Shown piece after piece: positions 61,439 through 63,382 of a stretch of 64,000 nucleotides of DNA. Below the pieces are notes generated by a model. It searched no databases and was not told the DNA's origin. It worked only from the letters and a program-made list of their open reading frames with translations. This stretch comes from an uncultured Candidatus Saccharibacteria bacterium (GTDB taxonomy: Bacteria > Patescibacteriota > Minisyncoccia > Phycocordibacterales > UBA9988): NCBI GenBank assembly GCA_964401135.1, contig CAYNXC010000002.1:16457-80456 (forward strand), read 5' to 3'. Made by a program: the position numbers and the translations under genes. How positions within the stretch are numbered: position 1 is the stretch's first letter; every line of letters starts with the position of its first letter.

Positions 61439-62575
61439 GTGACGACTCTGACACAATTTTTTGGGCGCGTACGCATTGATTGGGTCCTCTTCTGCGCCGT
61501 GCTCCCGCTCCTTGCCGCTGGGCTGGTAACAATGGAGTCGTTTGAGAGTGGAGCGGATTACTTTTTTGTGCGGCAATTAGTGTGGGTACTCATTTCAGTC
61601 GCAACATTCCTTTTCGTGAGTGCGGTAGACTGGCGTTTTTTGAAGCGCAGCGGCGTGTTGACAGGACTATTTATTGCGATGGCGCTTGTGCTCCTTGCCC
61701 TTTTTGGCCTGGCGCACACGGTGCGTGGCGTGCAGAGTTGGCTCATCTTTGGCGGGGTCTCTTTTCAACCGGCTGATTTTGCGAAGCTTATCTTAATTAT
61801 CCTTCTCGCAAAATATTTTTCTCGTCGACATATTGAGATCGCCAATGTCCGCCATATCCTAGTCTCTGGTGTGTACGCATTTATCTTTTTTATACTCGTC
61901 TTTCTTCAGCCAGATTTTGGCTCTGCGATGATTATTTTTGCCATCTGGTTGGGTATGGTACTGGTGTCGGGGATTAGTAAACGGCACTTACTTATTGTGT
62001 TTCTGATTGGAGTGGCGACATTTCTCTTCGCGTGGACGAGCGTTTTGGAGGATTATCAAAAGGCGCGTATAGAAACTTTCTTAGACCCACTCTCCGATAT
62101 CCGCGGCTCCGGCTACAATGTGTACCAGAGTATGATTGCCGTTGGGTCGGGTCAGCTGGTGGGAAAGGGAGTTGGACTGGGAACACAATCTCGACTCAAG
62201 TTCTTGCCAGAGTACCAGACTGATTTTATTTTTGCAGCCTTTGCCGAGGAGTGGGGCTTTGTAGGGGTAATTATCCTTTTCTTACTCTACGGTATTGCCT
62301 TCTGGAGAATTATTGTGACTGCGCGACAGGGAGCGACTAATTTTGAGTCGTTCTATGGACTGGGTATCGCCATAATGTTTTTGAGTCACTTTGTGATCCA
62401 TGTGGGGATGAACATAGGACTCCTGCCTGTCACGGGCTTGCCGCTCCCCTTTATGAGCTACGGCGGGTCACACCTTCTGATGGAGTTTGTTGCTCTTGGT
62501 ATCCTTATGAGTCAGCGCCGCTACACGCGTGCCTTTCACCGCGACGACATGCAGAATGAGTTTGTGGGGGTATAA
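61439..62575 (+). CDS. ftsW: SEDS-family peptidoglycan glycosyltransferase FtsW/RodA
   Basis: 378 aa, polytopic. QPADFAKL, LQPDFGSA, TDFIFAAFAEEWGF and GLPLPFMSYGGS motifs. Confidence 0.9.
   Translation: MTTLTQFFGRVRIDWVLFCAVLPLLAAGLVTMESFESGADYFFVRQLVWVLISVATFLFVSAVDWRFLKRSGVLTGLFIAMALVLLALFGLAHTVRGVQSWLIFGGVSFQPADFAKLILIILLAKYFSRRHIEIANVRHILVSGVYAFIFFILVFLQPDFGSAMIIFAIWLGMVLVSGISKRHLLIVFLIGVATFLFAWTSVLEDYQKARIETFLDPLSDIRGSGYNVYQSMIAVGSGQLVGKGVGLGTQSRLKFLPEYQTDFIFAAFAEEWGFVGVIILFLLYGIAFWRIIVTARQGATNFESFYGLGIAIMFLSHFVIHVGMNIGLLPVTGLPLPFMSYGGSHLLMEFVALGILMSQRRYTRAFHRDDMQNEFVGV
62525..62575 (+). repeat. Direct repeat copy A (functional 3' end of ftsW)
   Basis: 51 nt matching 63332-63382 at 46 of 51 positions. 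Confidence 0.85.
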
Positions 62576-62593
62576 ATAAAATATGGCTTAACT

Positions 62594-62614
62594 ATGGAGG
62601 TGAGACTTCCATCA
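62594..62614. repeat. REP-like palindromic hairpin, copy 1 (inverted orientation, one G:T)
   Basis: ATGGAGGTgagACTTCCATCA. Overlaps the RAYT stop codon. Confidence 0.8.
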
Positions 62615-63262
62615 ATCAATGGATAACTCGTTATGACTCGAGTCTTCGCGTTCTTGTGCAAGCCAATCGAGAGTCTCTTGATAAAATCGTTCAGGCGTCT
62701 CAAACCATTGAGAAAGAAAGGATGTATCAACAACTTTTATACGACCATTATCATATGCACCGTCCTTCTTAGATAAATAATCTTGGAAACTTGACCAAGG
62801 GTAGGTGATAATGGAAGTCTCACTTCCATCAAAAGGATTACTATGAATGTAATGAGGGAGCCAATTAAAGTGCTCGTCAGAGATCACTGGCTTAGACTTG
62901 AACCTCCCTTGGAAAAGTGCACCGACTCGACTGTATCTCAAGTTAAAATAATTAGTATAACCAGTGCCAAGTTTTCTCATAAACTTAGTAAGCCCATATT
63001 CAACTCGTTGCCGTATCATAAGGTGGTAATGATTTGGCATTAAGCAATAAGCCATCAGCTCAACTAGTTGCCCATCCAATTCATGGCTAAGTGATGGAAG
63101 TCTCACTTCCATCAGACGGTGTGCGTTTGGATCAGTTGCTTCGGTAGAGTTAAAAAGTATTAAGGATGCAATAAAACGAGATCGATCGGCATCATCTAAA
63201 AATATGTCTCTTTTTTCAACCCCTCTATTATAGATATGAAAAATTGTGTCTGTATCATCCAT
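62612..63262 (-). CDS. REP-associated tyrosine transposase (RAYT; IS200-like Y1/HUH transposase)
   Basis: HUH motif in YCLMPNHYHLMI, then ALFQGRFKSKPV and the catalytic Tyr region LPHYIHSNP. The N-terminus IFHIYNRGVEKRDIF is typical of this family. Confidence 0.85.
   Translation of the reverse strand: MDDTDTIFHIYNRGVEKRDIFLDDADRSRFIASLILFNSTEATDPNAHRLMEVRLPSLSHELDGQLVELMAYCLMPNHYHLMIRQRVEYGLTKFMRKLGTGYTNYFNLRYSRVGALFQGRFKSKPVISDEHFNWLPHYIHSNPFDGSETSIITYPWSSFQDYLSKKDGAYDNGRIKVVDTSFLSQWFETPERFYQETLDWLAQEREDSSHNELSID
62811..62831. repeat. REP-like hairpin, copy 2 (inside the RAYT coding sequence)
   Basis: ATGGAAGTctcACTTCCATCA. On the minus strand it is translated as DGSETSI. Confidence 0.8.
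63092..63114. repeat. REP-like hairpin, copy 3 (inside the RAYT coding sequence)
   Basis: TGATGGAAGTctcACTTCCATCA. It is translated in a different frame, as MEVRLPS. Confidence 0.8.
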
Positions 63263-63275
63263 GCGTCTCTATTAT

Positions 63276-63298
63276 TGATGGAAGTCTCACTTCCATCA
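63276..63298. repeat. REP-like hairpin, copy 4 (upstream of the RAYT start)
   Basis: TGATGGAAGTctcACTTCCATCA, 14 nt upstream of the RAYT ATG. Confidence 0.8.
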
Positions 63299-63331
63299 GA
63301 GTGAGGTGAATAGGATAGATGATGCTGCCAC

Positions 63332-63382
63332 ACGCGGGCCTTCCACCGCGACGACATGCAGAATGAGTTTGTAGGGGTGTGA
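63332..63382 (+). repeat. Direct repeat copy B (orphan duplicate of the ftsW 3' end)
   Basis: Would encode the same TRAFHRDDMQNEFVGV-stop peptide as copy A. An in-frame TGA lies four codons upstream (63320-63322). Confidence 0.85.

Follow-up and report, generated by a model that had tools for sequence, protein, structure and literature searches.

A conserved second copy of the ftsW 3′ end beside a RAYT-like transposase gene at a hypervariable pilin locus

Among the described systems that come closest to the locus treated here, the element e14 and phage 21 both integrate into the 3′ end of the E. coli icd gene, as stated in the part of PMC6379469 that cites Hill et al. 1989. Another kind of rearrangement of gene ends is the C-terminal displacement at rhs, together with sequential T6SS effector–immunity displacement, for which homology-facilitated illegitimate recombination was proposed (in the part of PMC5361080 that cites Jackson et al. 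2009). A third body of work concerns RAYTs, for which a gene flanked by two inverted REP palindromes is the stated requirement, and the IS200/IS605 family, which makes no target duplications (PMC2817692).

In the window, i.e., the whole 64-kb stretch of DNA that was analysed, an intact ftsW gene is followed by a hairpin-bracketed cassette and then by a second copy of its own 3′ end (Table 1); the two ends are called copy A and copy B. The original prediction of a 51-nt duplication in which every difference is silent was confirmed, since A and B differ at 5 of 51 positions (CGT/CGG, TTT/TTC, GTG/GTA, GTA/GTG, and TAA/TGA) and both translate as TRAFHRDDMQNEFVGV followed by the stop. The motif RRYxRxxHRDDMxNEFxG in the FtsW C-terminal tail is kept throughout Paceibacteria. 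A 29-nt core common to A and B occurs twice in the 64-kb window, with zero occurrences expected by chance. Ungapped similarity between the copies extends 8 nt farther upstream (62517/63324, identity 6/8), and a gapped, decayed remnant of ftsW lies upstream of B, where the in-frame TGA that had been reported is present; the three codons preceding B (TGC TGC CAC vs. CGC CGC TAC) show first-position transitions, which are not silent.

Table 1. Features around the 3′ end of ftsW, with positions counted along the window
Feature	Position	Strand	Evidence or remark
ftsW/rodA (SEDS family), 378 aa, intact	61439..62575	+	ORF; Pfam FTSW_RODA_SPOVE, E 3.9e-91
Copy A: functional last 16 codons and stop of ftsW	62525..62575	+	true ftsW 3′ end
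Flanking palindrome 1, REP-like hairpin	62592..62616	.	overlaps transposase TGA stop; ATGGCTTAAC precedes
RAYT-like Y1 (HUH) transposase gene, 216 aa	62612..63262	-	Pfam Y1_Tnp (PF01797) 32.6 bits, cut-off 23
ORF-internal palindrome encoding FDGSETSI	62809..62833	.	just past catalytic Tyr
ORF-internal palindrome encoding LMEVRLPS	63092..63116	.	upstream of HUH motif
Flanking palindrome 2	63276..63300	.	14 nt upstream of transposase ATG
Cassette right flank	~63301-63318	+	homologous in window, L105 and L107
Decayed 5′ part of putatively displaced ftsW fragment	~63319-63331	+	alignment, codon comparison; in-frame TGA 63320
Copy B: untranslated, putatively displaced ftsW end	63332..63382	+	807 nt downstream of A
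Type IV pilin-like gene, convergent with ftsW	63389..63982	-	Pfam N_methyl and T2SSG

The codon test that had been proposed for the five silent changes gave P = 2–8e-4 under random substitution (simulation, kappa 1–4), which bears out the earlier claim that these differences are not the neutral decay of a dead duplicate. By this test and by the conservation of B between lineages (see below), neutral decay is ruled out for the 51 nt, whereas it does apply to the 13–35 nt upstream of B, which decay freely up to a sharp boundary. Two of the changes are private to B (CGG and GTA), and both are silent, for which the expectation in an unconstrained copy is ~0.05; such an outcome is only marginally expected unless the changes were inherited from an unsampled functional allele. 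No in-frame start for translating B inside another ORF was found, and a minus-strand 94-aa ORF (63196–63480) overlapping the B region looks spurious.

Empty sites, in which ftsW abuts the pilin gene and for which the original prediction had advised a search, were found in the relatives L104, L115, and L116 (FtsW identity 94%, 88%, and 73%, respectively). The cassette together with the duplication was found in three diverged lineages of related Paceibacteria, and a serial array, A-REP-RAYT-REP-B-REP′-C, is present in L107 and L110–113, with the most distal copy being the most decayed. By alignment, the cassette-to-B junction has a single origin and is common to lineages with a RAYT dS of 0.6–1.8, which contradicts the earlier picture of a single recent arrival of the cassette and leaves no independent insertions in which the crossover position could be compared.

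The history of the ftsW tail is decoupled from that of the gene body. The bodies of L105 and L115 share 93.7% identity and their tails 80% (P = 2e-4); for L104 and L115 the values are 79% for the body and 94% for the tail (P = 9e-4); and L106 and L111, with bodies 99.7% identical, show four clustered tail differences (P = 5e-5). Copy B with its junction (GGGGTGTGA-TCAG..) matches the ftsW end, GTG TGA included, and the junction that are native to L115, an empty-site relative, as well as the decayed third copy in L107; all three adjoin the same pilin family. Copy A is linked to a cassette flank common with L105, similarity to which rises from ~77% to ~88–90% at copy A and stays high across the cassette. 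The transposase gene, present once in the window, has a gene-tree topology equal to the host tree, yet its synonymous divergence between the window and L105 amounts to dS 0.59, much less than the ~2.0 of ftsW, which indicates an exchange of the cassette block later than the split of the host lineages. The earlier proposal that the copies come from different ftsW alleles thus holds for the matches of B to L115 and of A to the L105-shared flank, but it has to be qualified in that A and B also exchange sequence within the genome. Distances over the 51-nt tail are star-like (4–11 differences among all copies) and do not resolve A or B as the foreign copy.

Exchange between the copies is seen in the two A alleles of the 80% lineage (L106/L111), which are mosaic, each matching B over a different half; in the window, GAC is private to both copies. 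The B copies of L105 and L106 differ at 2 of 51 positions, against 55% divergence at the linked RAYT four-fold sites (P = 6.5e-15), and the conservation of B exceeds the neutral expectation with P = 1e-9 to 1e-14 overall. The B of L106/L107 is 2 differences from the B of L105 and 7 from its own A, so that intragenomic conversion alone does not account for the conservation of B, which would also be refreshed by DNA from outside. In the neighbouring pilin gene, strains differ by swaps of the variable C-terminal domain, with the swap tract beginning 11 nt into the pilin 3′ end, just past B; within one species (L004 vs. L002), the sequence is identical through ftsW, RAYT, and B, and then shows 124 differing sites in the pilin. 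Pilin families differ among close relatives, and a search for the exact pilin in other contexts recovered the same arrangement only. On the ftsW side, the pilin module has no conserved homology other than B, so any pilin exchange in which the cassette is kept must have its crossover there. B would be kept conserved long after the founding event through recombination at the pilin-locus boundary.

With moderate confidence, we propose that B is a displaced, once-functional ftsW 3′ end, kept fresh by gene conversion and homologous exchange at the hypervariable pilin locus, with the RAYT-like gene probably a bystander in the duplication. In the native arrangement, ftsW and the pilin gene converge head-on with their stops 1–7 nt apart. 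Recombination between two related lineages may then have joined two blocks, the first consisting of the ftsW body with tail A and, between its hairpins, the Y1 transposase module, and the second of roughly the final 69 nt of ftsW (present-day B) and the pilin gene; either A or B could have been the incomer. Judging from the structure, one side of the join would have been homology-anchored and the other illegitimate or of short homology, with the incoming DNA plausibly entering by natural transformation and recombining through RecA. The complete end A would stay with the essential ftsW, leaving B stranded downstream. The array would since have been handed down by descent and also moved across lineages, some of which lost it while one gained a further copy to give A-B-C. 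B would be near-perfect, with silent differences only, because it derived from functional ftsW alleles and was repeatedly overwritten by short A–B conversion tracts and by homologous exchange with incoming DNA. Against this account stands the inefficiency, in model bacteria, of recombination over 51–66 nt at ~90% identity. The homologous capture from a relative that the original prediction listed among its options comes close to this explanation.

The Y1 transposase is the only ORF between the A and B repeats, and no tyrosine or serine site-specific recombinase is encoded there. Its translation shows HYH at residues 78–80 and the catalytic-Tyr motif HYIHSNP, placing it in the Y1 (HUH) superfamily as an IS200/IS605-like protein. 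Its earlier designation as a RAYT stands insofar as the gene is a hairpin-flanked, RAYT-like Y1 gene, but it scores 35 bits against NCBIfam REP_Tyr_transpos (NF047646), for which the curated cut-off is 80, and so falls short of a RayT equivalog. A PDB sequence search returned no related solved structure, and a metagenome scan for RAYT relatives gave 6 loci only. The palindrome GATGGAAGT-CTC/GAG-ACTTCCATC occurs four times at the cassette, i.e., twice flanking the ORF and twice inside it, and nowhere else in the 64-kb window at up to 3 mismatches, so that dispersed REPs are not seen at this scope. The two flanking palindromes are inverted (loop GAG in the first, CTC in the second), as in the bracket of a RAYT gene.

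The two ORF-internal palindromes had been missed previously. The position of the one just past the catalytic Tyr is also occupied by a hairpin in L114 and L120, with a hairpin sequence that co-varies, and the peptide of the other, EV[RG]LP, recurs in ~45% identical homologues. A large Patescibacterial family of Y1 transposases carries its own recognition hairpins in frame within the coding sequence, which suggests autoregulation or self-processing. These in-frame hairpins may prove the more important finding, ahead of the duplicated ftsW end.

An unlikely alternative is that the transposase integrates site-specifically, with tail A, hairpin, transposase, hairpin, and flank as the mobile unit, which would supply a replacement ftsW end; on precise excision, B would again complete ftsW, and coding selection would act on both copies. 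The occurrence of the cassette at the same ftsW site in at least four diverged lineages and the similarity step beginning at copy A are also predicted by such a mechanism, and it is consistent with the lower dS of the cassette relative to the host, the purifying selection on the transposase (dN/dS ~0.11 between lineages), the intact reading frame of B in three lineages, and the short similar motifs ahead of both copies (GCCGCTAC and GCTGCCAC). However, the search for the cassette at other loci recovered the same four-hairpin module twice, next to pilB in L114 and next to pilD in L120, with hairpins at both ends and no flanking direct repeat. These modules have the hairpin-defined ends without target duplication that are typical of IS200/IS605 elements, indicating that the 51-nt repeat at ftsW is not a transposition footprint; a target-site duplication made by the transposase is ruled out, both by these loci and by the behaviour of the family (PMC2817692). 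The ftsW-linked lineage L117 carries an intact transposase module with no B, and in the unrelated genome L070 a 3.3-kb insertion that is RAYT-free is enclosed by a perfect 36-nt repeat of the ftsW tail. Together with the modules at pilB and pilD, these two cases leave the RAYT with no evident part in making the duplication. In addition, the repeat boundaries lie 16–70 nt outside the hairpins, farther than the known IS200/IS605 cleavage sites (IS608/ISDra2). The >20 assemblies of this strain include none with an empty site, and the single-origin junction means that the lineages do not represent independent insertions.

It is likewise improbable that the repeat arose locally, by an in-situ tandem duplication of the ftsW end into which the module was inserted, followed by A–B conversion and with no second lineage involved. 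Genome-specific states common to A and B (GAC/CAG in the window; ACA/GAT/CAA in L105) and the conversion seen in the mosaic A alleles of the 80% lineage are in line with this account. It is contradicted by the GTG-TGA end and junction of B, which match the native L115 tail rather than A, by the A = GTA and B = GTG states common to the window and L105, and by the L106/L107 B, which has fewer differences from the L105 B than from the A of the same genome. Moreover, tail/body incongruence is also found between empty-site genomes, which have no second copy.

Somewhat less probable still is an active Y1/RAYT-like module, which would nick its four hairpins in single-stranded DNA and thereby start both the duplication or exchange of ftsW tails and the pilin swaps, or would integrate site-specifically with a replacement ftsW end. 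All three site types of this module clade adjoin pilus genes (pilin, pilB, and pilD). If it were true, the module would amount to a HUH nuclease that has been domesticated and drives variation at type IV pilus loci, and B would be a homology anchor or a spare gene end.

We give little credence to conservation of B for a function of its own, as a pilin 3′ UTR or terminator, a promoter or leader of the transposase, or a protein-binding site. Its nucleotide conservation far beyond neutral, the sharp boundary to the decaying flank, and its placement, immediately after the pilin stop and ahead of the transposase start, would fit such a role. However, no promoter-like or terminator-like site or RNA structure was detected in B, its folding energies are no better than those of shuffled sequence (z from -0.5 to +2.3), and Rfam over the window reported rRNA and tRNA only. 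L117 keeps an intact transposase without B, and the copies differ at third codon positions of ftsW, which is unexpected for a non-coding role. Lastly, an assembly artefact, i.e., the strain collapse or chimera of two ftsW alleles that had been named as a possible refutation, is excluded with near certainty by the A-cassette-B structure, assembled with both copies unchanged in >20 independent sequencing runs from several projects, and by the duplication in three further diverged lineages (JGI, ENA, and NCBI assemblies).

If B is indeed a displaced ftsW end, it would persist as a silent spare, kept pristine via recombination and not by selection on its own product, and the locus would provide a clean, multi-lineage example of an essential gene surviving 3′-end insertions in tiny CPR genomes. 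The locus also shows that, in Paceibacteria, a hypervariable pilin/surface-protein island has its recombination boundary at the conserved ftsW tail, which bears on surface variation in these episymbionts. For annotation, duplicated gene ends should not be taken for transposase footprints or assembly errors.

The rearrangement is tidy but not of a fundamentally new kind, with e14/icd and rhs/T6SS as known precedents. First, the cassette resembles RAYT/REP and IS200/IS605 systems (PMC2817692, PMC5581495) in its Y1 HUH transposase with HUH and catalytic Tyr, in its two-palindrome bracket, and in being single-copy in the available sequence and under purifying selection. Unlike RAYT/REP, it lies below the RayT threshold, is unaccompanied by dispersed REPs in the 64 kb, and has the palindrome also in frame inside the ORF; since target duplications are not made by the known members of the family, membership in it leaves the 51-nt repeat unaccounted for. 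Second, as in e14/icd, an element stands in the 3′-end region of a housekeeping gene, a direct repeat of the target 3′ end (cf. attL/attR) lies at both borders, with differences that are almost all conservative, the gene is intact thanks to what would be a replacement end on the gene side, and the putative original end lies downstream as an untranslated pseudo-end; loss of the e14 element restores a working gene, which we count as a further likeness. In contrast to e14 and phage 21, which have a tyrosine integrase and a defined att core, the ftsW locus lacks an integrase and encodes just a Y1 HUH transposase, which probably did not cause the duplication; its repeat is 51–69 nt instead of ~163 bp, and its cargo is a 0.7-kb single-gene module where e14 and phage 21 bring a prophage. 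Third, as at rhs/T6SS loci, a conserved 5′ gene part would anchor incoming DNA while the old 3′ end is displaced downstream as an orphan, recurrent events would line up one orphaned end after another (B behind A in the window; B and then a decayed C behind A in L107 and L110–113), strains would come to share the arrays through normal homologous recombination, and a hypervariable module lies alongside the locus. The ends displaced at rhs/T6SS loci encode different toxins, whereas the displaced ftsW end encodes the same 16 residues as the working one; here the variable module is instead the convergent neighbouring pilin gene, and the array includes a transposase module.

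The last 51 nt of ftsW (copy A) recur as copy B beyond a Y1 transposase gene, with 5 differences in 51 nt and the same encoded peptide, TRAFHRDDMQNEFVGV*, in both. The original prediction that all five differences are silent was borne out, with a probability of 2-8e-4 under random substitution, and the in-frame TGA it placed upstream of B is present at 63320. A 29-nt core common to A and B occurs twice in the 64-kb window (0 expected), and upstream of the repeat a further 8 nt show ungapped similarity (6/8 identical). GTA/GTG and TAA/TGA are allelic states found in functional tails elsewhere, TTT is a derived state in the functional copy, and CGG and GTA are private to B. 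Exact-protein look-ups found the ftsW-transposase-pilin order on contigs of >20 independent sequencing runs, all with both copies unaltered, which excludes an assembly artefact, including the chimera or strain collapse previously named as a possible refutation.

Features of the ftsW locus in the window and in loci (L-numbers) fetched from other assemblies; FtsW and RAYT identities are to the window
Feature	Position	Strand	Description
ftsW/rodA	stop at 62575		SEDS family, 378 aa; Pfam FTSW_RODA_SPOVE, E 3.9e-91
Copy A	62525-62575		last 51 nt of ftsW
Y1 transposase gene	62612-63262	minus	216 aa, between A and B; Pfam Y1_Tnp
Flanking palindromes	62592-62616, 63276-63300		one each side of transposase gene
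ORF-internal palindromes	62809-62833, 63092-63116		in transposase reading frame
Copy B	63332-63382		repeat of ftsW last 51 nt
Pilus-gene neighbourhoods of modules	window 63389-63982; L114 1232-2977; L120 3176-5651
23S and 5S rRNA genes	57477-60635		just upstream of ftsW locus
L104			FtsW 94%; empty site, ftsW/pilin stop codons 1-7 nt apart
L115			FtsW 88%; empty site
L116			FtsW 73%; empty site
L108	palindrome 2752-2780		FtsW 91%; single palindrome right after ftsW stop, no transposase, no B
L105, L109			FtsW 88%; transposase and B
L106, L107, L110-113			FtsW 80-81%; transposase and B
L117			RAYT 75%; module present, no B, no pilin gene
L107 deletion	5290-5339		compare L106 6100-6155
L106 LAGLIDADG ORFs	1457-2712		region matching that upstream of ftsW in window
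L114 module	3045-3728		between pilB and surface-protein gene; four-hairpin layout as in window
L120-122 modules	L120 3970-4653		between pilD and pilins; four-hairpin layout as in window
L089 homologue	8531-9315		28% identical transposase
L058 transposase	6921-7720		27% identical, immediately downstream of ftsW
L070 repeat	1300-1340, 4675-4710		spans ftsW stop codon

The window genome belongs to Paceibacteria (Patescibacteria/CPR), the source of all top FtsW relatives among species-representative genomes; loci of closer relatives were found via the protein database and then fetched. Empty sites, in which ftsW abuts the pilin gene without the cassette, do exist among them (L104, L115 and L116), a check proposed earlier. 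Past B, L107 and L110-113 carry a truncated palindrome and then a decayed third tail copy adjoining the pilin gene. The flank from the right-hand palindrome to B is homologous across the window, L105 and L107, and the cassette-to-B junction therefore arose once.

We note some further features of these loci. In L108 the adjacent pilin gene appears frameshifted, and the solitary palindrome, joined directly to the stop codon of ftsW (TAACGATGGAAGTGAGACTCCCATCAA), probably remains from a lost cassette. Relative to L106 and L110-113, the L107 contig of the 80% lineage lacks 24 nt in frame (MSHRRSIR) shortly before the conserved FtsW tail, a deletion lying between the near-repeats ATCCTCA and ATCCGCA. 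The window has no 16S gene between 23S/5S and the tRNA genes, and its 23S gene appears uninterrupted; the two LAGLIDADG homing-endonuclease ORFs of L106 probably sit in rRNA introns.

The empty-site sister of L105, L115, indicates which end belongs to which side. Its ftsW ends in ...GGG GTG TGA, followed by TCAG..ACTTAC..CATACCCCAGG, which essentially equals window copy B with its downstream junction. The pilin family beside this end is common to the window, L115 and L107 (62-66% nucleotide identity; other pilins, ~45-51%). Copy A in the window and L105 ends in GTA TAA, followed by [A/G]TAAAATATGGCTTAAC and then the palindrome, and similarity between these two loci steps from ~77% in the ftsW body to ~88-90% from copy A through the cassette. 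Judged by this native end and this step, B is physically part of the pilin side and A part of the ftsW-plus-cassette side.

The transposase gene is under purifying selection (omega ~0.11) and belongs to a family of >5800 members at E<1e-10; it scores above the Pfam Y1_Tnp threshold and below the NCBIfam RayT cut-off (35 vs 80 bits). The palindrome GATGGAAGT-CTC/GAG-ACTTCCATC occurs four times around and within the gene, with no further copy in the 64-kb window. The internal copies, which encode LMEVRLPS and FDGSETSI, may serve autoregulation or self-processing; we found no mention, in the RAYT literature examined, of an ORF carrying its own flanking palindrome in frame. The L114 (loop CCC/GGG) and L120 (stem TGACTGAAGT) transposases have hairpins at matching positions, the internal ones co-varying with the flanking ones and altering the encoded amino acids. 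In the L089 homologue, a hairpin of another sequence stands at each flank and once more within the ORF, and the peptide EV[RG]LP recurs in ~45%-identical homologues.

Site-specific integration by the transposase, carrying a gene end with it, would fit the shared position of the cassette across four lineages and the rise in similarity that begins at A. However, this explanation is unlikely. Transposase relatives at 62% and 56% identity occupy other loci, and the modules at L114 and L120-122, located by the suggested search for the cassette elsewhere, lack a flanking duplication. In L070, a Parcubacteria MAG that is unrelated (FtsW 62% identical), a perfect direct repeat of 36 nt encloses a 3.3-kb insertion with three secreted or surface protein genes and no transposase or integrase. 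IS200/IS605-type enzymes do not duplicate their target (PMC2817692), in line with the original statement that none is known to. Thus, the duplication is a property of the ftsW/pilin boundary; we reject it as a transposase footprint, and the RAYT-like gene probably travels as a passenger. All three site kinds of this module clade adjoin type IV pilus genes (pilin; pilB; pilD and pilins). The L058 transposase (Yonathbacteria MAG), a distant one, has inverted repeats AAGGGGTCAGACAC / GTGTCTGACCCCTT at its flanks and no tail duplication, and its site marks the ftsW 3' flank as a place where such genes land repeatedly.

The ftsW tail has a history distinct from that of the gene body. Identity between L105 and L115 falls from 93.7% in the body to 80% in the last 22 codons (13 tail differences vs 4.2 expected, P 2e-4), whereas that between L104 and L115 rises from 79% in the body to 94% in the tail (P 9e-4), the stretch from about -98 to -17 being essentially free of differences. 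Between L106 and L111, 99.7% identical in the body, the tail shows a cluster of four differences (P 5e-5). Each of the two A alleles of the 80% lineage (AGC..CAG..GGG GTG and CGC..CAA..GGA GTC) matches B (CGC..CAA..GGG GTG) over a different half, the signature of short conversion tracts. Of twelve tail copies, only the window's A and B carry GAC. Had the duplication been purely local and followed by concerted evolution, such genome-specific states common to A and B would be accounted for, but B's native-type end and the B-to-B similarity across lineages would stay unexplained; we consider this scenario improbable.

Copy B is not decaying. Between L105 and L106, 55% of four-fold sites differ in the transposase genes and ftsW synonymous sites are saturated, whereas B differs at 2/51 positions (P 6.5e-15); window and L106 B differ at 7/51 (P 8e-10). 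The 13-35 nt immediately upstream of B decay freely. Conservation for a function of its own is very unlikely, since B has neither a promoter-like nor a terminator-like site and folds no better than shuffled controls, and the L117 transposase is intact although B is missing there. L004 and L002, both of the window's species, are identical across ftsW, transposase and B; their 124 differing sites start in the pilin gene, 11 nt in from its 3' end, and the divergent tract stops at the conserved pilin N-terminal region. The cassette-to-B junction is common to the window and L105, whose pilins past B are unrelated. The left breakpoint of pilin exchange must therefore fall in or right after B, the sole stretch of conserved homology there, a direct clue that B may be kept fresh by its position at a recombination boundary. 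In empty-site genomes the genuine ftsW tail serves as this boundary, explaining its reticulate history. The pilin adjoining ftsW is hypervariable among close relatives and among strains of one species.

We propose that two related lineages recombined, by homology at one end and illegitimately or via short homology at the other. One block, comprising ftsW, its tail A and the module of the transposase, would thereby have been attached to a second, made up of the pilin gene and roughly the final 69 nt of ftsW that are now B. Either block may have been the incoming one. A second round or unequal exchange would be expected to give the A-B-C array of L107, and empty sites may arise by A-by-B deletion or by pilin swaps anchored in A. 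The lower transposase dS between the window and L105 (0.59; host dS ~2.0) indicates that the block was exchanged between lineages at a later time. Going by CPR bacteria in general, natural transformation and RecA may carry out this recombination. The original prediction of two once-functional ftsW ends united with the cassette, rather than a decaying duplicate, is partly supported and needs correcting: the event is an old one that the lineages share, A and B still exchange, B is refreshed at a recombination boundary, and the RAYT-like gene is a probable passenger.

We classify the locus as gene-end displacement, an already known kind. The element e14 at icd likewise brings a gene end, leaving pseudo-icd' behind (PMC6379469). 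C-terminal displacement at rhs and T6SS loci has an equivalent outcome; it has been ascribed to homology-facilitated illegitimate recombination, with homologous recombination then spreading the product (PMC5361080).
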